DNA of 64,000 nucleotides. Source: Amoebophrya sp. A120 (Eukaryota; Protista; Dinoflagellata). Below, in pieces: positions 8,858 to 62,157 of the stretch. The notes under the pieces are model-generated. The model did no database searches, had not been told where the DNA came from, and saw only the letters and a list, made by a program, of their open reading frames with translations. The stretch is from assembly GCA_905178155.1 (NCBI GenBank), contig CAJINV010000001.1, positions 4,816,747 through 4,880,746 of the forward strand, read 5' to 3'. The translations under genes were made by a program, and so were the position numbers. Numbering within the stretch: position 1 is the first letter of the stretch; each line of letters starts with the position of its first letter.

Positions 8858-11800
8858 GTGGTTCATCACTTGTTTTCGTTGAATGCCGGGGTGGAAGTAG
8901 AGCTAGAGCATCACCATCACGGAGAAAAAGCAAAAGGAGGGCCGTTGGATATCGAGGCCGAAGAGCTAGCCTGGATCCTTGGCGATGACCAGGAGCGGCC
9001 TGTGGAGGCAATAGCAGAGGAACTGGTGGTATCAAATGCAAAAATGTCTGGGTCTGGAAGGTTGGAACTTGTATGTAATGCTAACTTTGGACGCGGCTAA
9101 AAAAATCTTTATGTATTGCATGACCAGCAACAGCAAGAGGAGTCTAGTTTGTGCTACGCTGGGAAGGCATTTGTGATGCGGAGTAGGCATCAGGAAGCCC
9201 TCTAAAAATCTGTGATGCTAGGTCGTGCATTACAGACATCCCGGGCAATGCAAAATATGCAAAGAACCCCGGCAACATTCCAGACCCAGGCACTTTTGCA
9301 CTTGATAGGTGGGCTCGCAGTCGACCATCTTCCAACCCGCTGGAGGGGACGATGAAAACGAAAATAACGGGGGGAAAACCCCACCAGCAAGCGCCGCGCG
9401 CGTGTTCCGCAAGGACCAGTTTTTGAAGTTGGCACATCACTGGAAATGGTTGGAAAAACGGTTGGGAACCGCGGATGAACTTCCGTTCGAGAAAAAGCCT
9501 AAGCTGACCGCGAACTCCGTCCTCCGAGAGCTGCTGAAGTCGACGTCAGATCGAATCCCGTTGGAAAGGAAGAATCCCCACGGACTGCCCGCCGTTTTCA
9601 GCTACGATTTCTGCTGCCGGCGGGTGAAACGCACGAAATTGCCCTTTTTCGTCGTGGGAAACGAGATAAAAACTCTGCCAGAGAAGGAGAACAACACAAC
9701 CATTACGGGAAGTAGTGGCTATAAACAATCTGAACATGGACCAGAAAGTAGAACTACGCAGGAAGATATTCTGTCCAACATTAACTTCTGGAATCGAATG
9801 TTCGAAAAGAACACGAACCGTTTCGATTTTCCGGAGAAAACAGAGCGGTTGCTGACAGCAATAGGAAACTTCGGAAATAAAGTAGACATGGATGTTCTTT
9901 CCTCTGGGCGAGGCTTCCGCCACAAAGTAGAACAGAAAAATGGAAACGTTAACGCTGCACAAGAACTGAGCGCGGAGGACTCATCATCTTCACAAGTGAA
10001 AGTGTCAGCACCAACGGTCGTCAACATGTGGTCAAAGAACGAAATTGTGCGACACCGGCTGTTCCTACGTACGACTGCCCCGAGCATCTACGAGAAGAGA
10101 CTTCGGATCGTGGTCACCATTTCCACAGTGCCGACGAGACTCGAGCTATCGTGAGGAAAAATCCCCCCTCCCCATATCGAAACGAAGTTTCTGATGCTGG
10201 ATTTCCGTACACAAATCAGATTTGTCTTGCAGTAGAGGACTGCAGGCATGTGTCAAGCCTCAGCCGCGAGGTTTTGACGTAGGCGCCTAGCATGCCAAAC
10301 GTGTGTGCTTTAAGTCCAACAGCATCACAAACCGCCTGAAAGATGCGGGGCGCTCTCTGGACTTGCCTCCTTGCAAGACAGACAGGATTTGAGGTCACAA
10401 ATGCGCATCACAAATTTTCAGACCGATACGCTTTCAATATGGGGAGGGGGGATTTTTCCTTACGATACGAGCAGGTGAAGCCCGCCCTGATCTCGTGGTT
10501 ACGGCAGACCTACCCCTATCAAATGTAAAAATGTCTGGGTCTGGCAGAATGCAACTTGTCATGCTATATCTGAAGCATGCAAAAATCTGTGTTGCATGAT
10601 TACCAAAAGTCGTCCAGTTTTGACCAAGTCGCGAGGGAGTTTCTCATGCAGGATAGGCATGAGAGAGATCGCACAGAATCTGTCATGCTAGGTCCTGCAT
10701 TCCAGACCTCATGGGTCATGCAAAAGCTGCATGACAAATCGCGCATTCTTCCAGACCCAGACAGTTTTACATTTGATAACCCCATCGATCAGCTGTACCT
10801 GTTTCTCCCCACCCGGTTCGGTCGGGACGCCGTGCGGTACCGCATTCCAGACTGGCTCCACGAGCTGCAGGAGGAGCATAAACAAGTGCTGGTGCACTTC
10901 TGCCAGGAGTTTTTCGCCGCTACGGCGGTGCTGTGCGTGACCGACAAGGAGCAGGACCCGCAGACCAAAATTCTGCACGCCATGGACGATTCCATCGTGC
11001 ACCCGTGGCTGGTCGAGCGGATGCTGCGTGTCAGTCTCCTGCACCCACAGGCGAGCGGGGCGGTCGTCACCACCTACGCAGTCCACCAGTACTACCACCC
11101 CTACTGGTACGGATGCGTTGCGGGCTACTACTGCCTCCATGAGCGCAGACATTTAGATCACCGGCTTTTCGACGTTGACGGACTCCTACCCTTTCGAGCG
11201 AAGGGAGTGGTTGTAGACGGAGGAAGTGCCTCTGGTGCTTCCAGTGCCGCGGGAGAAAGAACTAGTAACGCCGCTAAAAAGGAGAGCCACAGCGTCGAGA
11301 GGACCGCCACACAACTGTGGAAGAACCAAGCGGCTGTGATCAGGGGTTGCAAAGCAAACGGCGATGATGCGCTGGTGCAGTCTTTTTTGCGTGCAAACGC
11401 AGTTCCGTACGTTGAGCTGCACACAGAATTGGAGGCGGAGCTAAACGAAATCGAGACGGCAGTGATAGCGAAATTACAACATTCTGTGTTCGAAGATCAT
11501 ATCACGAACTCCGAGTGGTTCAAAACTAGAAATACGCAGCAGAAGTTGGGCCACAACTACAATAAAGAACTGCTGCAAGAAGATGAACCGCCACGACCCA
11601 TGGAGAGCCAGGTGCTGTCTTTTCAAAAGGCGAAGCCCGGGCAGATGAATTTGCAGCTGGATTTCGCGCGGCGCCCTGATTCCGGCGGGGAGGGCGGCCA
11701 GAGCCTGCAGGATTTAAACAACAAGAAACTCCAGCGCAGCCGCAGACTGTGCATGCAACAGGACGAAAGCAGCTACTATGGGGAAAAAATAGCTGCGGAA

Positions 11801-13891: not shown

Positions 13892-16800
13892 ATGAGCTCC
13901 GCATTTAACTTTGTCCCGTGTATCATGCATCACCGGAGGGAAGCAGTGTTGTTTCTTTTTGCAGCGGTGGCCTGCGTTGTTTCTGTTTCTGGTCAACACG
14001 TTGATGCTGAGAAAGGTGCCTCACTTCCCGCGGATGCTGATTTCATTGCGAACAAGAACAGCCTTCGGCGAAGAATTTTCCGCGACAGAGAAGGCCATGG
14101 CAAGCCAAGTCTACGCATTTCCGCTTGCGAATCGTCCGCGGAATGGCGATGGTATCTGGAAACCACGCGCCGCTGGAGTCACGCGCAAAGGCCGTGGGCG
14201 GCCCTTGTGGGCGGTGTTGAGACGGCCACGACTTCTACGTCTGATGGAATATTAGAGGGCGATTCCATACAGCAGACGCAAAAAGACGGCGAGGATGTTC
14301 TCGATACCGTGAAGCAGCTCACCTTAGCTTTTGCCCAGGAGTTTGTCGCTTTGGTGCGGGAGTATCAGGGAAACATGCGCGCGATCTCGGAAAAGTTCTT
14401 CGGCGCGCTGGCGGAGGGGCGCATCGAAACCTCCACTCTTGATGGCGGATCAACGCGTGCTGCGCAAGAATCGGCTGCTACTGACGACGAAGGAAATAGT
14501 TTCACCGAACTTCCTTCCGTGACCTTGAACGTGGACTATGAATACTGCTTTTACGGCTACCACACGGCCGTGTATTTGTACGCCTGGATGACGCTCGGTT
14601 CGCAGGAAGTAGAGGGTGGTACAATTATGGACGAAGTCGAAGACCAGCACAATTCGTCGTCGCGTATGGCAGAGAGGGAGATGGCCGTGGCGCTGTTGGA
14701 AAACGTAAACAAAATGACGATGATGGACCTATCCCATGTAGAATTTCTCTGTGCCGCGACGGCCACGCAAGGATAATTACTCCTCGTTTACCACATAGCG
14801 AAATCTTCAGCTGATGCAGCATTTGCCTTTTTCATATACAATCTCTTGTCCTGGTGTTTCTCGGGTAGGTGAAAGTCACACATTGTATAGTTGATGAAAT
14901 GTATGCCGCCAACGGTGGGAGATTGATATTTTCCCTGGGATAGGGCCAGCTTGATTTCCTGGAGGAATTCGATTCTCCGGTGACCACGTGGGATCTGTTG
15001 GTGAACCTGTGGCGGTATCAAATGTGAAAATGTCTGGGTCTGGAAGCTTGTGATGCAAGTCCGTGAACAATAAGTGCTCTGTAATGCGCCGCCAAGCATG
15101 ACAAGTTTTTTCGTGCTTCTGTGATGCGTATTTCGTATGAGAAACTGCGCTTTTGCATGACAGGCAAGAGGATCTCTTGGTGGCCGCGCAATACAGAGTG
15201 CAGAGTCATGCCAGACTAGCATGACAATCTTCCAGACCCAGACATTTTTGCATTCGATAGGCGGCTGGAGCAACGCCCCCCGCTGCGGTTTCTGCTTTCC
15301 CCGGACAGGAAGGAAGAACAGCGCATGCGGCAGTACTCACACGAAGGAGCGTGCCTCAACAGTCCATCACTGCAGGAGTGCCGTCGTGAAGATTCCACTT
15401 CTCCGTCGTATTCAGGTCGAGACCTCCCAGACCCAGAGTCGTCACCATCTTTTTCTACGACTTGGTGGCAGTCTCCTACGGATCTAATCAGAGTTGTGGG
15501 GAAGAACAAGAACAACATCAGGAGTAGGATTCGCAGCAGCGAAGAGAATAAAATGGAAGAAGTTTCGCTTGCTATCGCACACACGGCGTCGGATCGACAT
15601 GGGTTTTCCTGCCTCGTCCGACAGGCAACGTTTCCTGAGTTCACGTCGCCGCACGTACAAATTCTTTTTCATCAACTTGATGCAACTCCTGGAACAAGCA
15701 GCAAAAGCTTCGCAGGAGGTGCACGGGCCGCAACTACAGAGCACGAGCAGCGGCAGATGCAAGTGCTGTACCTGAGCGGGCACTTTGGTCACTTGTATGA
15801 CCCTATGCACGTCATTGAGACGGAATTCGGTGACTGGAAGCTTCACCTGCATGGGGTGCTCTCCTACCACAAAGCCTACTTTCCGCATCTGCAGTCCGGC
15901 GACGCCGAGCTGGTCGAGATGCTCGGGCAGATCCACAAAACGAAGGCCAAGTTGCATGAAGACTGGGAGACGTTGCAGGCCTGGTTTGGCGCGTGGCTCG
16001 AGCGGACCTTCCCGACATCAAGTGCTGCTGGGGAGTCTTCACCACTAGAAAGAACGCGATCAAGAACTAGTCGGAGCATAAATCTCGATGTGGTGCTGTG
16101 TGGACACCCAGTGCTCTGGTGCAAACTGTTTGCGGACTATCCTGCGTCGGAGATCTCGGTGGTGGCCAGTTACGATAACCCCTTCCACTTTCTCGTGCCG
16201 CAAGGGCAAATCGAGCAGTGGCGCCATGAGCTTCGTGATCTAATTCGGCGCCGAAATTACTTTTTCGTCAGTTACACCGCTTACGCCAGCATTCAGCTGC
16301 ACTACATAGCCGACGCAGGGATCGTACCTTGGCAAGCCGTCATGGCCCTGCCGCTCGGAGAGCACTACGCGAAAAAAATGGCAAAAGAAGTGGACGAGCA
16401 TCAAAAAGACCGCGAAGTCGTGCTGGTTCATCCAGGCTCGACTCGTCTATCCGTCGCACGGCGATCCGGACAAGGGGAGCATTTTCAGTTTTCGAGAAAC
16501 TTGAAAATAATAGAGCTCGACTCCACAGGCGGGAACTGGCACGGACCGTCCATCATGCTGCGGAAGATGATCGAAGAGAGCGTGCTATCCTGCGTAGAAA
16601 CGACGTCTCGATTTTATGGTTTTGAGAATTGGATGTTGTAGGCAAGCAGAACTTCCGTGCCACTTACTTATCATGGGATCTAAACAGATTCGTTTTTACG
16701 TAGGATATGGGCCGGGATCCAGGGTGGCTTGCGCCGAGATTGCCGTATCCTGCGTAGAAGATCCGGACTGGCAGGAGTTTCGAACGAACGCTGTGGAACT

Positions 16801-17891
16801 ACTTGGCGCAGCCGCGACGAACAAGGAGGTCCCCGCCTCCGGTCCGCAAGCCAAGAGATTCCGAAAAATGATGGCCCAGACGTTGTTTTTCGATTTCGTT
16901 ATCCTGTGGCCCTACGACATAACGAATATGAAGCTTTCGGAATACTACGCGCTGCGCTTGCCCTATGGCAGTGTCAGGATTGAAATCGTCAAAGTTGAAA
17001 TAGTTTGTCATGCAGAAAATGCAACGCAGAGATTGCCTCTATTGAATTGCAGAGGACGCAAGGGAGGCAGATTGTAGTGCTGGTAAGGGTCGAGAATTGG
17101 GCTGCTGACTAGCATCACAGAGGGGAGCCCCTGCCCTGAACAGCATGACAAACTGGCTTCCGGTACGGACAAGATTTGTCATGCACCGACTAGACACTGC
17201 GGGTCCAGCTGGTATCCATTTTATGCATGACAAACTTTGTCGATTTCAAACCTGACGCTTCCATATGCCCATCTTTGTACACCGGGAATTGTGGCGATAC
17301 ACCCGGCGGGGAAGCCATGCGCTGGGCCCCGGAGGCGTGGACCCGCGGCCGGAGGTGAATGCGAGACTCGAAGACAGGGTCGCAAATTGCAAGCGAGAGC
17401 GAGAAGCGAGTCTAGAACTGCGGATTTCCTCCTCGGATGAACTGTTCGGAAAAGAAGACTCGAGAAAATCATCCTGCACGGACGCTGCACTGTTTGATAT
17501 TTCCCTGACCGGCACCGACGTGGTAGCTAGCGCCTTTGCTGATATTAACGAGAAAAATAACGTCTCAGAAACGCTAGAAGGAACAAGCGCCTTTCCGTAC
17601 GCATTCACCCCGTTCGAGTGGCAGGGCCGGTTTCGCATGGATCCCTACGCGGGCTGGTTCTACGCACGGATCGCCGAATTCGCGCTGCGTCCGCACCTCC
17701 AATACTACCGCAGCGTGCGCGAGCTCGCGGAGGTTGCTTTCGTGCTCGCGGAGGAGAAAAAGCGCACGGGGAGGATAGCACCTCTGGAGAGGATACGAGA
17801 ACAGATGGAAACCTGGTACAGAGATGCAGCGGCAAACACCAAGTCCTTCTGGAAGAAGCTGTTCACGGCTGCGGAGAGAAATTTGGACTAG
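13892..17891 (+). CDS. Secreted or membrane-anchored protein, putative glycosyltransferase-like, interrupted by 4 introners
   Basis: N-terminal hydrophobic segment; frame continuous after removing IEs at 14730, 15016, 16586 and 16964; C-terminal FVILWPYDITNMKLSEYYALRLPIFV resembles the GT-B-like E..A...P motif. Confidence 0.65.
14730..14942. mobile_element. Degenerate introner element, type X (213 bp)
   Basis: tatccca...tgggata termini; DR ggacc/gggcc; removal gives MMDQLDFLEEF. Confidence 0.75.
15016..15259. mobile_element. Introner element, family A (244 bp)
   Basis: Family A TIRs; DR ggcgg; removal gives NLWRLEQ. Confidence 0.95.
16586..16707. mobile_element. Short degenerate introner element, family E-like (122 bp)
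   Basis: tatcctgcgtagaaacg...cgtttttacgtaggata; decayed DR cgtgc/tgggc; removal with 5 nt gives ESVPGSRV. Confidence 0.75.
16964..17265. mobile_element. Introner element, family H (302 bp)
   Basis: TIR tatggcagtgtcaggattgaaatcgtcaaagtt / aactttgtcgatttcaaacctgacgcttccata; DR tgccc; removal gives RLPIFV. Confidence 0.93.
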
Positions 17892-18279: not shown

Positions 18280-20640
18280 ATGTCTGGACGAATCAATTGT
18301 TTTTGTTCAGCGAAGCTCCTAGCTCTTCTGAATTTTCTGCTGCTCGGCATCGTCTCGCGACGAGGTGTTGTATTTGTGTTTTCGGCAGGGGCGAGTGAGC
18401 AGCTGCCTCCGTCTTCTCAGGAACAACATACTGAGGAAGAAGATCAACATGGTCGTCAGCGTGCGGAAGATCATGTTGATGAGGCGTCAGGCCCTGGAGA
18501 TGACGAACATGAAGCCAGACATAATCCGCCGGTGCTCCCCTGGGGGCAGTGTCGTGCTTCGGGGCACCACGACCAGCAGAAAACGACAGACCAGCACACC
18601 GAGGGTGCCGGACGAGAAGATCCGAGAGCCTCGCAGTTCCAGGCTTGGTTTGAGGGCTCACCACAGTGGAACAAAGTGGTGCAGGAGGAGGAATTCGCGT
18701 CTAGTGTCAACACCCGGGACCTGGTCACGGGGAAGCTAAAAAATGTGGGAGGTTCCTCCGCCGAGCTGCGCCGGCAGTTCCTCGACCTGTTCGACCGGCT
18801 GGGACCGCAGCACCGGCGGAAATATTTGGAACTAGGCTGCGGCGTTGGGGAGTCCGTGCGGCTGGCCACCCAGTTTTTCTCTCACGTGTACGTGATCGAG
18901 GGCTTCCGGGACCAGCTGCAATTGTGCAAAAAAGTGGTGGAAAAATCGGCGCCACGGAGCGACCACGTGATCTGGATGCCGATGGACCTTTACGAAAACC
19001 CGGAAGGCTGGGAGGGCGTGCGCGAAAACGGACCCTACGGCGTCATTTTTGTGGACGCCAACCACGGCGCCCGGTGGGTGTGGAGCGACGCGATCAACGT
19101 GCTCGAGATGATCGCAAGAACGACTCCTAGCGCCAATGGTTCGACACCACGTGAAGATCAGGTAGTAAAGCCCTTGGTCATCTTCCACGACTACTGCCTC
19201 CATGGAAGTTCCGAAGTCAAGCGAGTCGTTGACGCATTGCTAGACGAGAGAACTACGACCACGGTGGGCGGCCCCCCGCAAGGTGGAAATAAAGAACATG
19301 GAAGTACGACCAATCATAATGGCAGCACGTCGAGGTCCAAGAAGGTCGGCCTTGGTCTGCTGAATTGTAAGGGCATAGGGGCGATTTGCGACGGCGGTGA
19401 ATACGAAGCAGTGATCTGCGAGCCATCGGATATGCTGCTGCAGAAAGATTGGAAAGAGTTGGGTAGAAGGCTGTCGCTCGTCGAGGTTTTCGACGACGAG
19501 GCCACCCGACACGACGGCAGTCCCTTCGTGGGAAATGAACCGCCGATGCTGAACAAGCTGTCGTCAGGTTCTACTTCAGGGAACGATCATAGTAGTACTT
19601 CTACTGCACCAGCCTTCGGTGACGAGGAGTCCTCGCTTATTCAGTCGTTCGACGACTACTTCCTATCGTGAGGAAAAATCCCCCCTCCCCATATTGAAAG
19701 CGCATCCATCTGAAAATTTGTGATGCAGATTTGTGACCACAAATCGCGTCTGTCTTGCAAGAAGGCAAGTCCAGGCTGCCCGGCACGTTATGCGGGCGAT
19801 TTGTAATGTTGTAGGGCCTACAGGGCAGCCGTCTACCATGCTAGGCGCCTACACCAAAAGGCCCCTACCTAGGCTTGCGAGCTGCGTGCAGTGCTCTACT
19901 GCAGCACAGATTTGATTTGTGTACTGAAATACAGCATCACAAATTTCGTTTTCGATATGGGGTGGGGGCTTTTTTCACTTTGATACTTCCGCTTGCTGCG
20001 ACTCCACTTCCTTGCGAGCTTCTGGCCGATGGAGTACCTGGTGTACCACAACCCGAAGACTTCCACCGCGGACCCGGACAACCTGGGCTTGGTCCTGTGG
20101 CCCAACGACCTCACCGACGTGGCCCGCCACACGGACGGCCGGGACTTTTTGTTTCCGTTGCGCAGCATCAACGAGCTGATGGGCGGGACCCGGGAGTACA
20201 ACAGCGACCTGTCCCACGGGCACCAGTCAGTGGTGTACTTCAACGGCATTGCACGCCACGCCGACCGGTGGAAGATCGCGCGGGAGCACAAAGTCCATTG
20301 GGTGGCCTCGCGGCTGTCCCCCCTGCAAGATGATGTTGACAACGATGTTGACGGGAAGATGAAACCGACCGACAGCGAGGTTAGAAACCAGCCCACGGGA
20401 GCCGTGCGGTTCGAGCACTTTGGGCTGCTGTTTTCGCCGGATTTGGTTTCGGTCGAGATGATCGACCTAGAAACGCGGAAAAAAGTAGGCACCGGGGTTT
20501 GGAGACAGGCATTGAAGAACCAACTCAAGCGGTGGCGCCGGCAGGGCTACTTGGATCAACACGGCCTGCACACGCCCACCAGCTTCCAAGAAGCAAGCAG
20601 AAGGTTTACTGGACTCTTCGAAGTAGCGGACGGGAACTAG
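18280..20640 (+). CDS. Class I SAM-dependent methyltransferase-domain protein with N-terminal hydrophobic segment, 1 introner
   Basis: Motifs YLELGCGVGES, VIFVDANH and LVIFHDY (Methyltransf_24-like); frame joins across the IE at 19664. Confidence 0.75.
19664..19985. mobile_element. Introner element, family B (322 bp), opposite orientation to the other B copies
   Basis: Family B TIRs; DR cttcc; removal gives DYFRLLR. Confidence 0.95.
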
Positions 20641-49336: not shown

Positions 49337-52300
49337 ATGGCCGCTGCATCCCAGGAAACAGTTGCACGGAGAACAAATAGTTGTCCCGGCCCGCCGGACA
49401 TCGAGGTTCCACGTATACCCAGCAGCTCAACATCGTCTGCAGATGAGAGGACCGCTACTGGTGACTCGAATTCGAAAAGCACAACGTCGAGCAGCTCGGG
49501 GCCTCCGGAGCAGCCGCAGCAGGCGCAGGGGCACGATCATGTTGAAATAGCACAAAACAACTCATCTGCCGCTGCTGGGAGCACAACAAGAAGGTCTACG
49601 AATGCTGAGGCTCCTGGCGCGTCGGTAAACGATGAACTACAGGCCCCATCCGTAGTTGCACCAGGGGGAGGTGGAACAACGACGAGCACAACAGCTACGT
49701 CCTCTACTAGTAACGCGACCGGAGGGGCAATCATGACGTCGACGGATGTGGCACGAGGACAACAGCAGCGACCCCCAAGCGCACCTCCCCCTGTTGTGGC
49801 TGTGACCGCACCCCCGTTTATTCCCGGAGCCATGCAGCACAACGTCCAAAATATGACTACACTTGTTGGTGGAAACGTCGCAAACAGTGCGGCCACGAAC
49901 GTACTACCGGGTAGTTCGCACCTCCAGCAAGTTGCCCCTGCTTTGCAGCAGCACAGCCTGGTTTCGTCCGTGGTTCAAAGCGCGCACCAGCAGTACTTTG
50001 CCCAACAGGTCGTGCAGCAGCACCAGCAACAAATCATGCAACAGCAATTTCTCGCGCAGCAGCACCACCAGCAGTCTCAACAGCAGCAGATGTTCGCACC
50101 GCAGCAGTCGCACCATCAACTGTTTTTGCAGCAGGCCGCCGCCGGGGTCGTGCGCGGACCAGCCGTCGGCAGTGCGAATTTTGGTGGTGCGCCGCAGCTA
50201 CCCGCAGCACCGGCGTTTCCACCTTTCGGGGACCACCAGCATCTTGTCCCGCCGATGGCGCCAAGACCACCTTCAAATAACTCGATGCAGCCGACGGGTC
50301 CATCCCCGCCAACGGCTTCCGTGGCCAGTATGTTTGCAGCCCCGCCCCCAATCGGTGCAATGGGCGGAGGTGGCGCGAGTAGTACGACAACAACCGGAGG
50401 CGCGAACGCCTCCGTTATTTCCCCGCACCCGTCGATGTTTCCCTCACACATAGGAGGTGGACCACCTCCGGGCATGCTAAGCACCATGGGAATGCCCACT
50501 TCCTCTGGGGGCGGTCCAAGTAGGACTTCTACAGGAATCATAATTGGTGCACCAAACGGGGGAACATCTTCTACATCAATATCCAATGCAGCGATTCCGT
50601 ACTTCCCTACTCCGCCGTGTGGCATGCCTCCCGCGATATTTCAGCCGCAAGCGGCCGGTGGATCGTTATTTCCAGCCGCCCCTACAGCACCGCCTCCTAG
50701 TAACGGACCTATCGGCGCAGCGGATGTGGATAAGGCTCCTCTTCTAGGGCATGGGCAGCAAAACGACAGCAGCACGTCCTCGTGCTCCTTCCGTCCGACT
50801 GCGGTCGAGTTTATTCCTCACCAGATTACATACCCACCGGTCCTGCCTCCAGCTGCCAACACGACAATCGTGAGTAATCTTAACAGCACGACGACCCTAA
50901 ATTACGGAACAAACCGCGATGATCTGAAGGGAATACCTAAAGATATGCCAACAGCGCAACCGACCCTGGGTTCTATGATAATCGGCTCGGAAGCTTCATC
51001 AAGCAATCAAAACGTTGTATCTACGTCTTCGCAGCAGGAGAACAGCAATCACCCGCAGCCGCTTGCCTTGAAGATATCGACCGGAGAAATCAAAAAATTC
51101 GTCCAACCCGCACTACGTCCTCAGTGCAGCCCCGGTGGAGGCCCGACCACGAGCTCTAGCAAGCAGAAGAACGACAACAAGAGTTCGTCGCAAACCTCAG
51201 TTACCGGTGCTAGTACCGCAGGCTCAAGCAATGCCGCAAGTAGCCAGTCTTCCGGTTCCAAGCTTTCTTCTACGTCTCCACAGCGAAGACCACAACTCGT
51301 GGCAGGGGCTGTGTCCTCAACCTCTTTCGGCAACGAACACTCCATGCCGCCACCGCCCCCGGCGCCCGGTCATCGGACCGGGGAAATGAAGACGCAACAG
51401 CAGCATCAGGATACACGACCTGCGACCTTCACCAACTTTAATGCGCAAGCCATATACCAGCACCAGCAGCAGCAGCGACCGCACCTCGCTGGCGGGGCAG
51501 CGGCGACTGGTACTAGTACCGCGGGGATGAACACCGCGTCTTCGCACAGTACTAGTAGTTCCTATCACCCAGCTGGTCCTGGTCCCAGCGCTTCGTCGTC
51601 GAGCATGCAGATGCAACATAATTGTTCCGGATCCGGCACCAGTGGTAATAGTTACATCGGGCAGCAGCAACATCAAAACCAACAGCAACAGCAATATCAC
51701 CAGAGCAACATGCCCCCGAATAAACAATTGATGCATCAAGCGCAGCGGTCGCAGGTGCGGAAATTCCAGGAAACGTCGAGTGAGTACAACGACTTTTGCC
51801 GCGAGTTTTCGGGGGTGATGAAACTCCAGAACGAAAATCTCTACGGCACCGGGCGCGACCTGAACATCACGGAACGGGCCGTCGCCCGGTGGACGGAAGT
51901 GAACGCCACCGACGAGTTCGTGCAGAATTGGCACGACCAGACCATTTTGATGATCCAAAACTCGCACTACTACCGCAGCCGCGTCGACTATCCCGCGAAA
52001 AAAGTGTTACAGTTACACATTTGTTGTCAATTTAGCAACACAAATTTCTCTGCATAAGAGAGAAAACTTGTAATGCAGAAATCCTACGGGAAAACACCTA
52101 TGAAACGAGGCTCCTATGCATATCCGGCATGAAAGAGCTTGTCTGTCTTGCTTGGCCTGCAACACAATGTGTAACTGTAGCACTTTTTTCTTGCGATATC
52201 GACGTGGATAGCATTCGCCTGCAGGTGCTCAAGGGCGACGCGCGGAACCGCGATTTGATGCCGATGAACAACAGGGGGGGCATGGATCAGCACAACGAGT

Positions 52301-55300
52301 TATCAAAAGGAAAAATCCCCCCTCCCCATATCGAAAGCGAAATTTGTGATGCTGGATTTGAGAACACAAATCAGATTTGTCTTGCTGAAGAGGACTGCAG
52401 GCCTACATCAAGCCTGAGTAGAGAGGTTTTGGCCTAGGCGCTTAGCATGAGAAACGTCTGCGCTGTAGGCCAAACAGCATCACAAACCGCCTGCATAATG
52501 CGGCGGAGCCTGTGTAATTGCCTTCTTGCAAGACAGAGGCCGTTTGTGATCGCAAATCAGCATTGCAAACTTTCTGCGACGTGCCTTTTCGATATGGGGA
52601 GGGGGGATTTTTCCCCTGGATACGAGTGGGGCAGCGCCGAGTGGAGCGGCGACCAGCAGGGAGGAGGAGGTGTCGGGCCGGGGGCGTCCTCAAGTACCTG
52701 CTGGAATAACCGTAGTGGTGCTGGTGGCGCAGGCGCACCCCATAATTGTGCGCCTTACCAAGACAACGCTAGTACACCGCAACGCTTTCGTGCGGTGTTT
52801 CTGGCGGACGACTGGCAGGACGAGCGTGTGTCACACAAGCTGAGCCTGCTCGACTTCGATCCGCAAGAAAAAGAGCTCACCCTGATCAACTACTCGTCCG
52901 TGCTCCCCCCGCGGGCCTTTGCGGCGGGGCACACGGGGAACGAGAAACTCGGCCAGCACCAGAAACGCGCCAAGGGCAAGTTTGGCGATGGCTTGCAGTC
53001 GGCGTGCTCCGTTTTTGCCCGGAAAGGAAAACACATCCGGATCGACAGCGCACCTGGATACCAGTACACCTTTCAGTATCAACTGCAGGCCGGCCTCGAT
53101 AGCGTATTCACTTTGATGAATTTTTTTGGTGGTGCATTTTTGTTTTCATTTCGTTTTCGTCGTTTTTATGTGGGCACTCGCACCTCGTGTTTGTGAGTTG
53201 TACAAACACTGAGTCCAGCAAAGGCTAGCTGATTGTATTTCAACGAAAGTATTTTTCGGAGCAGCCTGCGTTTGCGTATTACATACCTACGTATACCACG
53301 TTGATCTCGTAGAAGGAAACAGAGAAGCTTTACTTCGTCACCAAAAAAAAAACCAGGTTTACACGCTGCATTACAAGTTGTCCGGGACCAGCGAAGTGTG
53401 CACCGCGGGTGGCGGCGATGGGTTTGGCCTCGATTGCGGGGACGACTTCAACTCGGCAACCGACACGCGCGTGCGGCTCCGGGGCGCCAACTTCGATCGG
53501 CAGCGGTACCTCTTTCTGAATCCCGAGGACATGAAAGACCGGTGCTTTCGCCCATTTCTGCGCCAAAAGGAAATGCCCAACAAGTACGAGATCCTCCGGG
53601 GTCCCTGTCTGCGGAATCGGATCTACGTCAAGGGCATGCTGGTGCAGCAGCCGCATTTGGACGACCACGGTGTATGGGGGTGTTTTCAAACGTTTTACTT
53701 TGTCACCTCTGTCACATGAATTCGTGATGCAAGTAAGGCAAAAGTGCAAAGCAAAACAAGGGCGATAAAGCTTGCGCCCCTTCTTGCATTAAAAACTCCT
53801 GACTTCTGCCGTGCTAGTAAATACGTCGAGCACTTGTCACGCGAAGTCGCTTGGTTTTGTGGAGTCTCGGGCTGATCGCAATTTTGCATGGCAAATCGTG
53901 CGACAGAAGACAATGTAAATAACATTTGAGAATCCCATACTCCGCGCGCATTGCCTTGAGCAAAACAGACAAGTACTTCGGGTACAACCTGCTCGAGTTT
54001 GACATGAAAAGCCGCGACCGGGAAAACAGTATCGACATGAGCCAGGAACGCCACGCCATCGTGCACGCCTGGCACGAGGTGCTGTGCAAGGCGTACGTGG
54101 ACAAGAGCGAACGGAGCCAGCGGGAGCACGAGGAGCGCGCCCGGGTGCTGTTCCGCGCGTTCGAACGCGCGCCGGAGTGCTTTGAGTGCAGCGTGATCGG
54201 CAGCTGCCCCGACCGGTATGGAAACGAGATCCGCCAAAAAATGTGGGAGTACTTCAAGAGCTACTACCAGGATCCGAAAAGATGCGCGGCGCCGGGGATG
54301 CCCGTTGCCCACGGAAACGACAGCAGGAAAAAGTACTTCAGAATAAAGCTGAACTTATGTTTAGAAGAAGGTAGCTAGACACGGCTGCAGCACGCGTGGC
54401 CCGTGCTGTTTGGGTCTGATGGATGCGCAACGTTGTTGCATAAAGCGTACTGGAGACAGATGTTGCATAAAGCGTACTGGAGAGTTCTTGTACTGGAGAC
54501 AGATGCAGTTCTCGACATACAAAATGTGAATTTTCTCAAAATCAAAAACAAGAAACCTGCAACAAAAATAAATAACTGCTGCTACCTAAATAGGTTGATC
54601 AAACGGTGTGGATACAATCCGGTGCAATTTCACTCTTCTTTGTGCAACATGCTGGCCTCCTTTCTCCCCGACCTGGAGCAGGAGTGGTTATCCAAGCGCG
54701 CAGTCCTGCTAGAACAGGAGAGCGAGGACGTGTCCCAAAGCGGCAAGATGATAAAGGACATAGCGACCGGGCTGTTCGGGGAGTTTTTTCGAAAACGCAT
54801 CGAGGAGGCGAAGCATGCCTGGAACGTGAAGATGCCCCCAGATGTTGCGAAAAGCGTCCGCGTCAGGGGCGTCGGGATGAAGCTGCAGGGTGGCGGTGGT
54901 ATTAACAGTTCTTCCGGCTCAACAACATCTGCTTCCTCCTCCATGTGGGGTGGCGGCCCCGCAACATCGGCTGCTTTCAGCCCGGTGAATCTGACCGTGA
55001 AAGTGGTCCACAGCCGGAATCGGGAGTGCCGCAGCGAGGTGGCGAGCCTGAGCGGTGACTCGTTGAACTACTTTTCGCTGAGCGGGTTTCCGACCCGGGG
55101 GGAGCGACTCGACGGTGTGTATGAGGTGCGCGAGAACTATGCAAGAAAAAAAAATGTGTTAGTGTAACTGCATCACAAATTTGCTCTACATGACAGAGAA
55201 AATCTGTCATGCGTGGCTTGTAAGGGAAAACACACATGAAAAGAGGACTTCATGGTTGTCTGGCATGACAGTTGTAACGTTGTTGCATGTTCTGCATTAC

Positions 55301-58300
55301 AGAGTTACACTTACACAGTTTTTTTCTTGCATAAGAACCAGGTAATGAACAATGTTTTCACCGCGTGGCAGATCACGAATCCGTACACGTATTACAGTAA
55401 AAAATGCCCCCACTCCCAAACAAGTCGCAAAGATTTGCGATGCGAAGTTTCCAAATGAAAACTTTTTGTCATGCATGAAAGAAGTGCGAATCTTTCTGAT
55501 GCAGATTCTAGGCGTGTATTGCATCGCTTGCATGACAAGCGCCACTCTTTCTGGGGTCTTTTGCAATACAAATTTTTGCTATTCACGATTGGAAACCTGT
55601 GATGCTGATAGATGCAAGAGGGCGAATGTTTCATTTGGAAAGGTTTGCAATACAAATGCTCCTAAGTTCGGGGGTGGGGGCATTTTTCACTTTGATAACA
55701 CGAAACAGAAGTTTCCCGTGAACCCGCAGGGCAATGCTGCCGGCACGACCATGAGCCACACCTACGTCCACAACGAACAACACTTTTTGTACAATGACTA
55801 CGGTAAGTGGCACCTGAACTACGCGAACAAGTTCAGCCGGCTGGGAAACTTCCGCGATTCCCGCCCGCTGGCTTCGTGCATCATGGGATTCTGCTATGAT
55901 TGTGTACAAGTGCAGCTTTTGGTTCCAACTCGTGTGGGTCCCCCTCATTAATTTGCAAATGCAAAAAACCAAATCATAATTAACTTTACTATAGGCACTG
56001 TCTGTTGGGCAAAGAACAGTACAACTTCTCCAATCTTCCGTGCGCAGATTCATTTTCTGTCGTTTCTGGTTTGTTTTGGTTACAGCTGCTGGTCGTCTTG
56101 CTGCTCATGCCATAAGCATCGATCGATGAGGGGCCGCGACGGCTTAGGACCACACGAGTTCTTTTGCACTCTTCGATATCTGGCACAGCAAAGACACCAA
56201 TGGGTGGATCGAGAACACGGCCCCCGTCGGTAACACTTTCAAGGGCAACAATGCGAAGGGGAAGGGAAAGCAGCAAGGCGGTGGTGGGGTTTATAATTTC
56301 GGAACAGCAAATAATGGCGGCGCCGGGGGTGAGCTGAATTCCATTTCAAACAGTAATCAGCGAGGGCAGAATATCCCACGAAAAAAGTGGTCTATGTATA
56401 GTTACACATTTGTTGTCAGTTCAGCAACACAAATTTTCTCTGCACCATGAGAGAGAAAACTTGCAATGCAGAGACCATAAAGGTGGCCAAGAAGACGTAC
56501 GAAATGAGGCTCGAAAGCATTTTGCGCATGACAGAGAGTGTCTCTGTTGCTTCGTCTGCAACAGCACAGTGTGCAACTGTAACATTTTTTTCTTTGCATA
56601 CAGAAGGAGGTGAAAATCGACGTGTGCAGCATGTTCGACCCGAACACGACCGCCCACTTTATGGCGTTCTCAAACGTTACATTCTCAACTGTCACATGAA
56701 TTTGTAATGCAAGACTAGCACAGGTGAGAGGGAGAACCTTGCGCGTCTTGCATTACAGGTTTGATCCGGATTACAGTGCTATTTAGCCTTCCGAGAATTT
56801 GTCATGCGAAGCAGCTTGATCGTCTGGCGGGTCATGGTCATTTTGCATGACAAATCATGTAACAGGTGAGAATGTAACGCTTGAGAACCCCATACACTTC
56901 TGCCTGACGATCAACACCAGCAACGCGAACGGGCGGGAGGACGATTACATCGCGGAGTTCAACCAGAAATTCGTAGGGGCGCAGCACCAGCAGCAGTCGT
57001 CCGCCGTGCACACGGTATGAACTGCAAATATGTCTGGGTCTGGAAGATTGCAGATGTTTGTGATGCAGAGTCTGCGTAAGTAACCCAGAAGAACTAGCAT
57101 GCAAGCCTCAGCATCACAGGTTTGGAGCAGGTTCCTCAATGCCTAATCCGCATGACAAATCCCCTTTGTCGGTGACACGAAAAAGGGGTACTGTTTCTGC
57201 CCATGCATGGCAGATTTTTCTATCACGTAAAATGCGCATCATAAGTTGCAACCTTCCAGACCCAGACATATTTGCAATTCATACACGGTCCCCAGCTACC
57301 AGATGTTTTGGCAGGAGATGGTGAACCAGGTGGAAATCGAGTGCGGCCGCCTACGGTGGTACATGAGCAAGGAGGAGAAGAAGTGCCTGATGCACACCGG
57401 GCTGTCGCAGTTGTGCCAGGGACTCGGGATTCAGACCACCGTGCAAATACAAACGATGCAGGATCTGTTATTCTGAGTAAAAACGTCCCCACCCCATAGT
57501 CAAGGAATTTCTCTGTGCTTTAAATTTGGTCTTTTCCAGTACATAAACACCCCATAGTCAAGATGGGAAAACTGCTAGACAAATCTACGAGCTTAGGTTG
57601 TTGCGCATGACAGGCTTGGCCTCATATTGTAATGCTGTTGAGCTCGTTCGGAAGCATCACAAATCTGGCCCACCGTGCTGATTGGAGCAGTACAAATTCC
57701 AAAACACGACTAGAAGTTGCTTCTCATGGGGCTCCGCATTAGAAACATTTTGAGCATGCGTTTTTGCATTACAACTATGGGGTGGAGACGTTTTTACATA
57801 GGATATCTGTTGAAGGAGCAGGACCTGGACAAGGACGACCAGGATCTTCAAAACGACATATCAAAATGAAAAATCCCCCCACCCCATGTCAAATCGAAGT
57901 TTGTGATGCTGGATTTGCGTACACCAATCAGATTTGTCTTGCTGGAGAGGACTGCAGGCCCATACCAAGCCTGAGCATAGAGGTTTTGGGCTAGGCTCTT
58001 AGCATGAGAAACGTCTGCGCTGTAGGCCCAACAGCATCACAAATCGCCTGCCTAGAGCGGCGGTTGTCTGTGGAGGTGCCTTCTTGCAAGACAGAGATGA
58101 TTTGTGGTCGCAAATCAGCATTGCAAATTTTCTGCTACGTACCTTCTCGATATGGGGAGGGGGGATCTTTCCTCACAATACGACATGTACTACAACGAGG
58201 ACGACGATAATTACCCGCCCGAGGTTCCGCCGTGCTGGGACGACGATGACTACGATGACGAGTTTCCGGTCGGACCGCAGGAGCAAGCCTCCTCGTCCTC

Positions 58301-61300
58301 GCGGATCCCCACCGGAGCCAATAACGCAAACAGCAAGGAGCAGAACACGACCAGTGGCAACAAGAAAGATCTCAATAAAGTAGACCACGACGAAGCACTG
58401 GATCAGCCGCGGCGAACGGCAAGCAACGCAAATGAGGCAATGCACGACAGCAGCAATCCGCTGTTCGAAATTCCGAACATGAAAGACGCGAACGGCAAAC
58501 CGCTGGTTCTTATGCATTGCAAATATGTCTGGGTCTGGATCTGGAAGGTTGCAACTTGTGATGCTGCATGTGGATACTACAAAAATCTGTATTGCATGAA
58601 CAGCAAAAGAGGTCCAGTTTATGCCACGGCGAGAGGGCATTTCTCATGCGGTATAGACATGAGGAAACCCTCACAAAATCTGTGATGCTACGGCATGCAT
58701 CACAGACGTCAGGAGTCATGCAAACTGCGCATGACAAACCTTGCATCCTTCCAGACCCAGACATATTTGCATTTGATAGTTCTGACCAGGGAGCAGCTGG
58801 AAAAGAAGAAGGTCGTCCGGTTTCCCATCAACGACGGAACAGCAGGCGCCGGAACGACCGCCGCGGACGCAGACAAAAAGAAAATCACCTCCAGTATGGG
58901 ATTCTCAATTGTTACATTCTCAACTGTTAATTTAACAGTGTTACATGAATTTCTGATGCAAGAATGGCAACAGGGAAAGGGCGGATCTTGCAACTCTGGC
59001 ATTACAAGTTAGGCACAAACTCCCATGCTGTTTAGCCCTTCCAAAATTTGTCATGCGAGGTAGCTTCACTGTGTGGACGTCGACGTGGACGTCGATGCCC
59101 ATTTTGCATGACAAATCATGTAACAGTTGAGAATGTAACATTTGAGAACGCCATATCCAGCCAGCGGCACGCGTACGAGAGCTACGACCTCGCCCAGACG
59201 CTAGCGGACACGAAATACAACCACAAGAATATTACAATGAAAAATGCCCGCACCCCCGAACTTGGGAGCATTTGTATTGCAAACCTTTCCAAATGAAACA
59301 TTCGCCCTCTTGCATCTATGTATCAGCATCACAGGTTTCCAATCGTGATGAATAGCAAAAATTTGTATTGCAAAAGACCCCAGCAAGAGCGGCGCTTGTC
59401 ATGCAAGCGATGCGATACACGCCGAGATTCTGCATCAGAAAGATTCATACTCCTTTCATGCATGACAAAAAGTTTTCATTTGCGAACTTCGCATCACAAA
59501 TTTCAGCGGTGGGGGGCACTTTTCACTGTAATAAAGAACGATCTGCTAGGGGAGAACGAACAAGACAACGGCTCTGAAGATGCAAACAACTCCGAGGTGA
59601 TCGACCGAAACAAGATGAACTCGTTGAACGTGCCTCACATGAACAAGTGCACACGCGAGCTTTTCTATCCCACGAAAAAACTGTTTCACTGTGAACTTGT
59701 GATGCATGGAATGGAACACAAAGCTATTTCTATTTGTCTTGCTACACGTGCAAGACATTGGATTTTTAAGGGTGTTTCCCCTTGGGAAGTGCGCATGGCA
59801 AATTTTCTGTGCCATGTGTGACAAACTTGTGATGCACATCTTGCAAAATCATCACAGTGAAACAGTTTTTTCCTGCGATATTCTCCGCAGTATCTTTAAT
59901 TTTGACCCTACCCGCCCCACGTGGAACGTAGTCAGTGCGAAGACCGTACGCGTGCAGGGAGAGAATTTTGATGCCGGTGTTGGAGAAGGTACAGCAACTG
60001 GAAGTGCAAGTTCCGCCGCTGTGACTGCTGGAGCTGCAAGTTCATCAAGCAGTAGCAGCTCCTCCTACTTATCGACCAACAATAAATGCGGAAATATTAG
60101 TAAAGGTGCAGATGATGACCCAAGGGTCCCGGGGTCGTCCTCCTACATTGAGTTGGACGTGATTCCCGCGGAGGGCAAGCCGTTCTGGCAGAATACCATG
60201 CTGGACGTCCTGCGGGCGGGACAGGGAAAGCCGATTCTGCTATCAGAAGGAAAAATCCCCCCTCCCCATATCGAAACGAAGTTTCTGATGCTGGATTTGC
60301 GTACACAAATCAGGTGTGTCTTGCAGTGAAGGACTGCAGGCCCATATCAGACCTGAGTAGAGAGGGGCTAGCCTAGGCGTTTAGCATGAGAAACGTCCAT
60401 GCTGTAGGCCCACCAGCATCACAGACCGCAGGCATAATGCGGCGGAGCCTGTAGAGTTGCCTTCTTGCAATACAGACGCGACTTATGGTCACAAATCCGC
60501 ATTACAAATTTTCGGAGGCGTGCCGTTTCGATATGGGGAGGGGGGATTTTTCCTTTTGATATCTGCGGAACCCGCAGGAGCAGGAGGAGTTCCGCAAAGA
60601 GCAGCTCGCTATCAAATGCAAAAATGTCTGGGTCTGGAAATTATCTAGACTTGTCATGCATGTTTTCCATGCCCCATGACGTCTGTGATGCATGCCGTAG
60701 CGTGACAGATTTGTAGAGCGCTTTGTGATACCTCTACCGCATGAGAAACGCCCTCTCCGCGTAGCACAAACTGGAGTCCTCTTCCCTGGTCATGCAATAC
60801 AATTTTTTTCAGAATCCAGCGACATTAGCACTTCCGGTTGGTAGAGCGATCGGCTACCGAGGCACGTCAGGGGGCGTCGCTACTTCAATTCAATTCAATC
60901 CAGCGACAGCATCACAAGTTTAGAATGTTCCAGACCCAGACATATTTGCATTTGATACTTGCCCAGCTTGACGAAGCGCTCCGCGTCCTGAACGCGTGGC
61001 GGGAGCAGATTGCCGACGGCGCCTGCATGGAGGCGGGGGGCTCAAAGGGAAAAGGGAAGAAGTCCTCTGCTTCGACCATCGCCAGTCGCATGGGCATGGG
61101 GATCCCCGACGGCGAGCAGCGGTGGCATACGGAAATAGGGCTACGCGACGATCGCAGTCGCTATCCCGCGGGGTACGAGCCGGAGAGCGACGAGGAGGAC
61201 GAGCAGGACGACACTTCTGATGAGGAAGAGGACGAGGAAGAAGAAGATACTATTACCTCTGCAGAAGAGGATATCACAAATACTACGAGTCAGAAGCTGC

Positions 61301-62157
61301 AACATCAAAGCACTGTGGTCAACATCGACGCAGAAGAAATTACTTTACCCGCAAGAACATCAAACGGAAAGAACGCCGGAGCAACTGCAAACGGAGATGT
61401 TGCGCCTTGTGACTCGCTACAGCACGACGGAGGAGGGCCTCCAAATACAGCACGCTCAAGTTGTAGTAGACCAAAGGAATTATCCCCAGTGGCTATGACG
61501 TATGCCGACCGACTGAAGATGTCAAGAAGCAAGACAACCACGACTAGCAGTAAAACTTCGACTATCAAAAGTACTTAAAAATGTCTGGGTCTGGAAGAAG
61601 AGAAATTTGTCGTGCACATTTTCCATGATCCATGATGTCTGTGACGTATACCATAGCATAACAGATTTTTTGAGCGCCTATCGATGCACATCCTGCATGA
61701 CAAATGCCCTCTACGCGTAGGCAAATTTGACTCATCTTGCTGCTCATGCAATACAGATTTTCTGAGCATCCAAATGCAGCATAACAAGTTTGGCTCTTCC
61801 AGACCCAGACATTTTTGCATTTGATATCGACGTCGGCCTCCAACGCACCGCCCGCTTCCGTGCCAAAAGCGAACGTCCGACCAAACACCAATAGAATCAC
61901 AAAGGAAGATCTCTATGCAAGAAAAAAACTGCGTAAGTGTAAATCTGTGATGCAGAAAATGCAAAACAGTTACACTTGTCATGCTCGACATGCATGATCG
62001 GCTCGCTTCCTCTGTGTTTTCCCTTTCTATCTGCGCATAACAAGTTTTTCCTGTCATAGCAGACAAACTTTCGTTGCAGTTTTCCCAAACGACTTACACT
62101 AACACAGTTTTTTTCTTGGATAATCTCGGCGCTTGGGGTAATCCGGACAGCGACTAA
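49337..62157 (+). CDS. Giant gene: Q/P/S-rich N-terminus plus GHKL (HATPase_c-like) ATPase domain; 18 introners plus at least 3 other introns
   Basis: Frame can be followed across all 18 IEs, GT-AG introns 53104-53356 and 55910-56147 and one intron near 54328-54592, to TAA at 62155; motifs KGKFGDGLQSA, RIYVKGMLV and YFGYNL...SRDR. Confidence 0.75.
51989..52198. mobile_element. Introner element, family D variant (210 bp)
   Basis: TIR tatcccgcgaaaaaagtgttacagttacacatt; DR tcgac; removal gives RVDVDS. Confidence 0.94.
52301..52622. mobile_element. Introner element, family B (322 bp)
   Basis: Family B TIRs; DR cgagt; removal gives HNEWGS. Confidence 0.95.
53673..53939. mobile_element. Introner element, family G-like (267 bp), DR not preserved
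   Basis: tatggg..ttttcaaacgttt / aacatttgagaatcccata; flanks cggtg/ctccg; removal with 5 nt keeps frame. Confidence 0.8.
55138..55333. mobile_element. Introner element, family D (196 bp)
   Basis: TIR tatgcaagaaaaaaa; DR agaac; removal gives RENQVM. Confidence 0.95.
55390..55697. mobile_element. Introner element, family C (308 bp)
   Basis: Family C TIRs; DR acacg; removal gives PYTKQK. Confidence 0.95.
56372..56600. mobile_element. Introner element, family D variant (229 bp)
   Basis: tatcccacgaaaaaagtg...ttttttctttgcata; DR cagaa; removal gives GQKEVK. Confidence 0.92.
56660..56894. mobile_element. Introner element, family G (235 bp)
   Basis: TIR tatggcgttctcaaacgttacattctca; DR cactt; removal gives TAHFCL. 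Confidence 0.95.
57016..57283. mobile_element. Introner element, family A (268 bp)
   Basis: Family A TIRs (tatgaa variant on both arms); DR cacgg; removal gives VHTVPS. Confidence 0.95.
57469..57805. mobile_element. Introner element, family E (337 bp, with a 43-bp insert)
   Basis: Family E TIRs; DR tctgt; removal gives QDLLKE. Confidence 0.94.
57859..58180. mobile_element. Introner element, family B (322 bp)
   Basis: Family B TIRs; DR cgaca; removal gives NDMYY. Confidence 0.95.
58511..58778. mobile_element. Introner element, family A (268 bp)
   Basis: Family A TIRs; DR gttct; removal gives PLVLTR. Confidence 0.95.
58895..59155. mobile_element. Introner element, family G (261 bp)
   Basis: Family G TIRs; DR tccag; removal gives ITSSQR. 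Confidence 0.95.
59230..59533. mobile_element. Introner element, family C (304 bp)
   Basis: Family C TIRs; DR aagaa; removal gives HKNDLL. Confidence 0.95.
59666..59880. mobile_element. Introner element, family D-like (215 bp)
   Basis: TIR tatcccacgaaaaaactgtttcactgtga / tcacagtgaaacagttttttcctgcgata; DR ttttc/ttctc; removal gives ELFRSIF. Confidence 0.92.
60241..60561. mobile_element. Introner element, family B (321 bp)
   Basis: Family B TIRs; DR tctgc; removal gives PILRNP. Confidence 0.95.
60610..60957. mobile_element. Introner element, family A (348 bp, with a 72-bp insert)
   Basis: Family A TIRs; DR ctcgc/cttgc; removal gives EQLAQL. Confidence 0.94.
60825..60896 (+). mobile_element. 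Short nested insert with 12-bp duplication and (TTCAA)n tail; possible truncated non-LTR/SINE copy
   Basis: aatccagcgaca at 60813-60824 and 60897-60908; host length without it is 264 bp, typical of family A. Confidence 0.55.
61563..61826. mobile_element. Introner element, family A (264 bp)
   Basis: Family A TIRs; DR tcgac; removal gives KTSTSAS. Confidence 0.95.
61914..62122. mobile_element. Introner element, family D (209 bp)
   Basis: Family D TIRs; DR atctc; removal gives EDLGAWGNPDSD-stop. Confidence 0.95.

Follow-up and report, generated by a model that had tools for sequence, protein, structure and literature searches.

In a 64,000-nucleotide stretch of the genome of the dinoflagellate Amoebophrya sp. 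A120 (contig CAJINV010000001.1, positions 4,816,747 to 4,880,746 of the forward strand; hereafter the window), genes are interrupted by transposon-like introner elements that begin with TAT, end with ATA and lie between short direct repeats. These elements insert with a 5-bp target duplication, are present in DNA contigs, and are missing from RNA-like contigs together with exactly five further nucleotides (element length L + 5), in either orientation and without use of GT-AG sites. The piece removed consists of the last base of the upstream duplication, the element itself and the first four bases of the downstream duplication, a register that restores the pre-insertion sequence whatever the target and that is well supported but rests on few junctions.

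Introner elements and their removal from RNA

An exon of the window is 100% identical to the A120 protein GSA120T00003588001.1, and the interrupting elements carry the published features of A120 introners, in agreement with the identity proposed in an earlier note made from the DNA sequence: they occur in A120, have inverted repeats (IRs) of TAT followed by an A-run with a direct repeat (DR) at the border, and form repeated non-GT-AG families. The class is already known in this organism. The accessible text of Farhat et al. 2021 (PMC7789003) describes 29,850 members whose IRs start with TAT and are bordered by DRs of 3-5 nt, calls the borders unknown and leaves the mechanism open; the published elements also resemble those studied here in their many families, their size of ~240-260 nt and their RNA support.

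Scanning the window for TAT...ATA pairs with matching arms recovered all 35 inserts of the earlier note (9030 to 62122), and the rescan gave an identical tally of 27 perfect 5-bp DRs, six with one mismatch (14730, 27980, 43141, 46185, 59666 and 60610) and two decayed copies (16586 and 53673). Two extra decayed copies, 55895-56178 and 24908-25203, bring the total to 37 (Table 1). Element coordinates run from TAT through ATA, and the inferred intron from start-1 to end+4. The elements are 122-348 nt long, with one exception of 1500 nt. Matches with a perfect DR and at least 15/25 matching arm positions number 25 in the window, against 0 in each of 100 first-order Markov simulations; chance-level TAT...ATA pairs (13921, 42734, 44313, 48240 and others) were discarded. 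The nine sequence types counted previously are about right, as BLAST of 34 copies places 29 in six groups and leaves 5 unlinked. Any GT/GC-AG register is present in only 3 of the 37 elements, which bears out the statement that most copies have none. An Rfam search gave 0 matches, as did a comparison of the family A end with viral contigs. The two arms of one copy often match different subfamily variants at positions 4-10 (for example 41141, 57016 and 58511), which suggests recombination or conversion between families.

Read evidence came from Logan contigs, which lose rare variants. Runs X3, X5 and X6 were taken as RNA by guess and judged spliced, because two GT-AG introns present in run X1 are missing from them. 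In these RNA-like contigs, element + 5 nt is missing at 26 of the 37 sites, by 7 direct joints and 19 exact length sums. Between 8800 and 28150, where X3 and X5 have no coverage of exons, a joint was found at 7 of 12 whole elements, all of the joints listed skipping exactly L + 5, and the other 5 elements are at low depth and have no joint among those listed. Between 42200 and 62199, 19 of 23 elements lie within length sums that close to the base at L + 5 each; two of the sums also require a GT-AG intron starting exactly at the end of a contig piece. A residual of 289 nt is explained by the 36th element, 55895-56178, and its interpretation as a GT-AG intron (56019-56307) was ruled out, as this leaves a stop. 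One RNA-like contig lacks 14 consecutive elements. The annotated A120 protein agrees at 19/19 junctions of its gene, and family B is removed in both orientations (10147 and 19664). The earlier note had predicted that each gap in RNA would equal element length + 5, and had claimed removal without GT-AG use; all 7 direct joints and the 19 length sums agree. A joint from 9061 to 15225, which connects two TIR (terminal inverted repeat) copies, was set aside as a repeat artefact, and the raw-read runs X9 and X10 gave 101 and 45 aligned reads, all on element sequence and none on exons.

In DNA, represented by X1, the 8 pieces listed run unbroken from the flanks through the duplications into the TIRs and include intergenic DNA as well as canonical introns. 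The X1 contigs show no common DNA form free of the element, though rare forms may escape them. In 42200-62199, element bins are ~2000-fold deeper than unique bins in X1 and ~4-10-fold deeper in X3, rough values in which depth is no copy number; roughly, they speak for thousands of element copies, strongly depleted in RNA.

The coding context agrees with removal. All genes of the window are on the + strand, and deleting element + 5 nt restores the frame as claimed, with 35/35 junctions inside + strand open reading frames (ORFs) of at least 150 aa. Deletion of the element +2 or +8 nt, in the same frame, leaves 34/35 junctions in an ORF, and +3, +4, +6 or +7 leaves 19-27/35. Frame alone cannot fix the 5, because +2 and +8 score 34/35; it is fixed by the RNA. 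As also noted before, the element at 41141-41393 interrupts a J domain that is rebuilt on removal (Pfam DnaJ, E 1.3e-16, downstream exon). Every one of the 37 elements lies within an ORF, while ORFs make up ~75% of the non-element sequence (P ~2e-5). In the related loci described below, insertion phase is biased (146:96:73, p 2e-6), and 46% of insertions are in phase 0 in the inferred register. If retained, two thirds of the elements would disrupt the frame.

Register of the cut

A perfect duplication conceals the position of the cut and a mismatched one reveals it. The upstream base is retained in RNA at duplication positions 1-3 (16586, 59666 and 60610) and at position 4 of 53673, where the RNA piece begins at 53944; the latter is a lower bound and places the cut after base 4 or 5. 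At 55895, a mismatch at position 5 decides between Cys and Trp. Both the A120 protein and the aligned AT5.2 ortholog have Trp at this junction, as encoded with the downstream base, and this sets an upper bound: the cut falls after base 4 or earlier. Since the upstream base is kept at positions 1-4 and the downstream base at position 5, the cut is placed after duplication base 4, giving an intron N-TAT...ATA-NNNN, a conclusion that is well supported but depends on few junctions. Homolog searches for further position-4 or position-5 junctions in two related loci (L052 and L003) found no proteins. In the related loci described below, 48 of 78 duplication mismatches are at third codon positions, against ~41 expected if one copy were free; the register could occasionally wobble.

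Conserved and free positions in related loci

A pattern scan yielded 150 loci (L001-L150; 786 kb with overlaps) whose elements belong to the same families (75-95% identity). Calls made blind to the DR comprise 459 elements, of which a codon model oriented 315; leaving the terminal triplet free gave 489, of which 362 were oriented. Elements that could not be oriented (75/437 and 127/489) were left out of the directional counts. The duplication has a strict length, with a perfect 5-bp repeat in 342 of the 459 DR-blind elements and repeats of 4, 6, 7 and 8 bp in 3, 0, 1 and 2.

The two ends differ in which bases vary. Among the 362 oriented elements, position 1 of the terminal triplet has 0 variants at the 5' end and 9 at the 3' end, position 2 has 2 and 4, and position 3 has 9 and 2 (Fisher p 0.0003); the asymmetry is also found in families outside the search seed (0:6, 1:3 and 4:0; n 209). 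Strand-biased mutation cannot explain this crossed pattern, because each end has the same base at its first and third positions. Against a background of ~8.6 private changes per position at arm positions 4-30 of both ends, four bases and no others are depleted: the 5' U (0), the 5' A (2), the inner A of the 3' end (1) and the next base (3; C in 3/4 variants). These are the U+2/A+3 donor profile plus A-Y (Y, pyrimidine) at -7/-6. The A at -7 and the Y at -6 are conserved, and the context upstream of this putative branch A is not.

Duplication identity, the GT/AG dinucleotides and arm pairing show no sign of selection. In the 315 oriented elements duplication mismatches are even over the five positions (18, 14, 14, 18, 14), so that a clustering at bases 1 and 3 failed in this larger set, the flanks have no base bias and the exon start is flat. 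The first intron base in the register is G in 98, C in 84, A in 79 and T in 54, an AG end occurs in 29/315, and any GT/GC-AG register in 24/315. The claim that junctions form without standard dinucleotides is upheld for GT-AG, which is unused, but needs amending for the donor, which in the inferred register keeps U+2 and A+3 of a standard donor. Arms are in register in 346 of the 362 copies and most copies are predicted to fold end-to-end. Arm mismatches show no excess of G-U over A-C (204 vs 222, p 0.41), and the rate of change over arm positions 4-30, ~2.8% per site, resembles that of the free duplication bases (4.7% per pair). Exact removal as element + 5 is still seen in 53673, 55895 and 61563, the arms of which have decayed or lie out of register; 55895 has a shifted subterminal stem of non-significant stability (z -1.1).

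Transposon nature and a shared internal motif

The elements are short DNA transposons resembling miniature inverted-repeat transposable elements (MITEs), with 5-bp target duplications: they have TIRs and a fixed-length target-site duplication (TSD), are short, non-coding and multi-copy, and occur in both orientations. No ORF-bearing long copy that could be autonomous was recognised in the window or in the 786 kb of loci. Integrase-like enzymes fit a 5-bp duplication. In the accessible text of PMC12130899, ORFs resembling integrases are described from one TIR family of A120, which may offer a lead to the transposase.

In the window, the motif GCAT(G/C)ACA is confined to the elements, with 86 occurrences in their 10.3 kb and none in the remaining 53.7 kb. 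It is found across families in 440/489 elements, near both ends and pointing outward. It likely serves transposition and not splicing, because the RNA-supported copies 16586, 53673 and 55895 lack it. A second TAT...ATA transposon family, with related TIRs and 8-bp target duplications, is represented by window 28203-29407 and by positions 1610-2132 of L013. Both copies are nested in 5-bp introners, as expected if they are not cleanly removable from exons; a third 8-bp case lies at 10329-10608 of L056.

Proposed mechanism and alternatives

We propose, at a probability of roughly 0.55, that the elements are removed by the spliceosome, which would read N-UA(U) as a donor and cut 7 nt after a branch A, by analogy with Giardia. 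The cuts made by the cell's own spliceosome would thus lie one base upstream of the 5' TAT and four bases downstream of the 3' ATA. The donor N-U-A-U would be read like the GUAU donors of this genome minus the G; GTAT is the commonest start (13/56) among GT-AG introns predicted ab initio, a noisy set that yielded no branch consensus. The inner A of the 3' ATA would be the branch point, and the acceptor, devoid of a dinucleotide, would be set by counting 7 nt from that A. Both ends would be read on RNA as single-stranded signals, U-A at +2/+3 and A-Y at -7/-6, and as the TIR places TAT and ATA at both ends, either orientation would carry both signals; the arms and the internal motif would serve transposition. 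According to the accessible text of PMC7789003, A120 keeps U2, U4, U5, U6 and nearly all spliceosomal proteins, and no U1 small nuclear RNA (snRNA) was found. Giardia has VTATGTT donors and an invariant distance from branch point to acceptor (PMC6679479), and the non-GT-AG introns of Fritillaria are processed by a modified U2 spliceosome (PMC13326754), as far as the accessible parts of these papers go.

Several points weigh against this proposal. The terminal bases of an intron normally must pair in spliceosomes, and here neither +1 G nor a terminal AG is enriched (GT-AG 11 observed vs 9.7 expected). There is no U2-pairing signature beyond A-Y, with U two bases before the A in 171/362 copies and no extra conservation at the 3' end; the U-run near that end is no more conserved than its 5' mirror, and no pyrimidine tract is selected. 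The putative branch A is lost, or is G there in coding context, in 3/362 copies (2 oriented). Counts from L001-L150 come from loci not established as A120 and without RNA, and some end variants may be shared by descent, the private counts being 0:8 and 4:1. As for the register, each bound is one junction, the protein at position 5 is a gene model, and the codon-model test favours the upstream base at positions 2-3 with no clear preference at positions 1, 4 and 5. In Table S4 of PMC7789003, as accessible, all nine predominant A120 motifs are NT-NN, and that of strain A25, whose elements begin TTA, is TT-NN; these motifs agree with the register but may reflect aligner preference.

The same register and end signals could also serve a non-spliceosomal endonuclease and ligase, Euglena-like or derived from a domesticated transposon protein, that recognises the terminal triplets in the RNA and cuts at fixed spacers of 1 and 4 nt; we regard this as plausible but rather unlikely. 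It would suit the free terminal dinucleotides, the missing U1 snRNA (PMC7789003, accessible text) and the strong end-to-end stems of most copies, and Euglena introns follow an analogous code, N3-CDG...CHG-N5-6, with fixed spacers and a probably non-spliceosomal machinery (PMC12501133, accessible text). Euglena, however, needs both triplets as a complementary pair in that account, whereas here the constraint is crossed, 5' position 1 being fixed while its partner varies and position 3 showing the reverse; moreover, the fixed bases match the donor U+2/A+3, and no candidate enzyme was found. Whichever enzyme is at work, its cuts might instead be positioned by the TIR hairpin itself, as the earlier note and Fig. 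4 of Farhat et al. have it. The predicted pairing of most copies and the 346/362 with arms in register would fit, and even 55895 retains a shifted stem; in general, a stem may still help by drawing the ends together. Yet arms that change like free bases without a G-U excess, and out-of-register or unpaired ends that are cut exactly, make such positioning quite improbable. Of the claim that stem and TAT/ATA ends together set the junctions, the part about the ends stands, and the part about the stem is not supported.

Excision from DNA before transcription, in the manner of the internal eliminated sequences of ciliates, would be in keeping with TA(T/C) ends and TIRs, which resemble transposase substrates; Logan contigs drop rare variants, and 1151 further joints lie beyond those listed. 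We nevertheless consider it very improbable, given the unbroken X1 pieces and an end conservation that follows transcript direction, which double-stranded excision could not see. A hairpin with a short direct repeat is likewise a classic substrate for template switching by reverse transcriptase, but that the joints are such artefacts is hardly credible: one contig lacks 14 consecutive elements, the skip is exact at 53673, where 2/5 duplication bases match and the upstream bases are retained, two thirds of the elements would disrupt the frame if retained, and the spliced protein aligns with its AT5.2 ortholog.

Other features of the window

Insertion is very uneven among genes, and long element-free ORFs adjoin genes with up to 19 elements. 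Two very long ORFs of this kind, at 3-6524 (2174 aa) and 31358-36895 (1846 aa), have no Pfam family at cut-off; nor was any found at cut-off for 24 exon pieces or for the proteins P0001 (the annotated A120 protein) and P0003. Two probable GT-AG introns, 41947-42113 and 42763-43000, have starts or ends resembling decayed elements, which suggests that some canonical introns derived from introners. Many putative GT-AG introns, among the canonical introns of the window and the ab initio set, end A-rich and not pyrimidine-rich. A short repeat after a stop codon (25489-25566) has high depth in RNA-like contigs from other loci and is not an introner by our scans.

Table 1. Introner elements and other features of the window.
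Feature	Position	Strand	Evidence
Introner, family A	9030..9307	+	direct RNA joint, skip 283
Introner, family B	10147..10467	+	direct RNA joint, skip 326
Introner, family A	10517..10778	+	direct RNA joint, skip 267; fold z -8.6
Introner, unlinked type, DR mismatch base 3	14730..14942	+	scan + ORF junction
Introner, family A	15016..15259	+	scan + ORF junction
Short decayed introner, DR mismatches bases 1, 3	16586..16707	+	RNA joint 16583-16711, skip 127, upstream bases 1-3 retained
Introner, unlinked type	16964..17265	+	direct RNA joint, skip 307
Introner, family B, orientation opposite to 10147	19664..19985	+	direct RNA joint, skip 327
Introner, family E	22934..23141	+	scan + ORF junction
Candidate 37th introner, strongly decayed, DR mismatch base 3	24908..25203	+	element + 5 links two coding frames
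Introner, family C	26359..26645	+	direct RNA joint, skip 292
Introner, unlinked type in window	27632..27853	+	scan + ORF junction
Introner, family C (287 nt) grown to 1500 nt by nested element, one DR mismatch	27980..29479	+	scan + ORF junction
Nested fold-back element, TAT...ATA, 484-bp arms, 8-bp target duplication, different transposon family	28203..29407	.	
Introner, family A, within J domain	41141..41393	+	frame restoration + Pfam DnaJ
Introner, family A	42240..42502	+	scan + ORF junction
Introner, family D, DR mismatch base 3	43141..43444	+	scan + ORF junction
Canonical GT-AG intron (control)	45632..45853	+	missing from RNA-like contigs, present in run X1
Introner, family D, DR mismatch base 1	46185..46489	+	RNA length sum
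Introner, family A	46553..46810	+	RNA length sum
Introner, family E	51989..52198	+	exact RNA length sum; annotated protein
Introner, family B	52301..52622	+	exact RNA length sum; annotated protein
Canonical GT-AG intron	53104..53356	+	RNA-like contigs
Decayed introner, family F, DR mismatches bases 2, 3, 4, arms 3 nt out of register	53673..53939	+	RNA piece starts 53944; length sum
Introner, family E	55138..55333	+	RNA length sum; annotated protein
Introner, family D	55390..55697	+	RNA length sum; annotated protein
Decayed 36th introner, DR mismatch base 5, without in-register end pairing	55895..56178	+	289-nt length residual; Trp in protein
Introner, family E	56372..56600	+	RNA length sum; annotated protein
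Introner, family F	56660..56894	+	RNA length sum; annotated protein
Introner, family A	57016..57283	+	RNA length sum; annotated protein
Introner, family C	57469..57805	+	RNA length sum; annotated protein
Introner, family B	57859..58180	+	RNA length sum; annotated protein
Introner, family A	58511..58778	+	RNA length sum; annotated protein
Introner, family F	58895..59155	+	RNA length sum; annotated protein
Introner, family D	59230..59533	+	RNA length sum; annotated protein
Introner, DR mismatch base 3, upstream base retained	59666..59880	+	RNA piece starts 59884; annotated protein
Introner, family B	60241..60561	+	exact RNA length sum; annotated protein
Introner, family A, DR mismatch base 3, upstream base retained	60610..60957	+	RNA piece starts 60961
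Introner, family A, arms 4 nt out of register	61563..61826	+	annotated protein
Introner, family E	61914..62122	+	annotated protein
Host gene GSA120T00003588001.1, 2347 aa, no Pfam family, 19 introners	49337..62157	+	
Host gene with DnaJ domain, 3 introners and several canonical introns	40570..44111	+	

Comparison with known systems and significance

The accessible text of PMC7789003 gives the border of A120 introners as 'unknown' and their splice sites as 'variable' relative to the hairpin (Fig. 3 legend), whereas we find a strict 5-bp duplication and one register. The directional conservation of the ends, the lack of selection on pairing and the internal motif common to families also go beyond that text, although figures S19-S25 may show part of this. 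A search of the later literature, which left subscription journals mostly uncovered, turned up no work on the splice register of A120 introners or on how they are removed. Figures and subscription papers aside, the fixed register, the directional end code, the absence of stem selection and the shared internal motif are absent from the accessible published text.

Resemblances to other systems are partial, as judged from the accessible parts of the papers cited. The non-conventional introns of Euglena (PMC12501133, PMC11282704) likewise derive from MITE-like elements and lack GT-AG; their TIR triplets lie at set distances from the junctions, and the DRs blur the border. They have paired CAG/CTG triplets, spacers of 3 and 5-6 nt, a purine at the exon start and excision as circles. 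The elements studied here have TAT/ATA instead, with spacers of 1 and 4 nt, an unbiased exon start and a crossed constraint, and so do not fit the euglenid type; among the joints listed from the low-depth contigs, none corresponds to a full-length circle. Introns of Giardia and Trichomonas (PMC6679479) share the V-T-A-T donor with its free first base, a pattern also seen here, and a fixed distance from branch A to acceptor. Their full CTRAC branch motif, AG end and A at -8 by consensus differ from the present elements, in which there is only A-Y at -7, no AG and no fused CTRAC + AG, and in which a transposon end provides the signals. Fritillaria borealis introns (PMC13326754, PMC11282704) are likewise MITE-derived, with TSD and TIR, do without GT-AG and presumably rely on an adapted U2 spliceosome; they prefer the ends AG-AC and AG-AT, keep U1 and have a duplicated U2AF, whereas here 3/4 terminal bases are free and U1 was not found. 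The introners of Micromonas and Aureococcus (PMC11282704, PMC7789003) are also non-autonomous TIR transposons that become introns upon insertion. One of their splice sites is canonical and comes with the element, while the other is recruited from the TSD, so that they need particular targets; no such target is needed here, with 24/315 elements having any GT/GC-AG register.

How more than 60% of A120 introns are removed is the open question, which the register and the four constrained bases make directly testable: the predictions concern the branch nucleotide and the donor bases, and hold that arms and target duplication can be scrambled. In addition, the register offers an exact rule for annotating introner-bearing genes. 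If removal is not spliceosomal, the elements would define the substrate of an RNA cutter-ligase convergent with that of Euglena. If it is spliceosomal, both terminal dinucleotides would be dispensable, and the host could render transposon insertions harmless wholesale. In its fullest form, to which we give slightly less than even odds, the A120 spliceosome, apparently without U1 snRNA, would need no more than U-A at donor positions +2/+3 and a single branch A placed seven bases ahead of an acceptor of any sequence. Both signals would come, whichever way the element lies, from the ends of a whole set of transposon families with a common internal motif, and an insertion anywhere in a gene would leave no trace after removal. 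Such a splicing code would be simpler than any other known, and its substrates would number tens of thousands.

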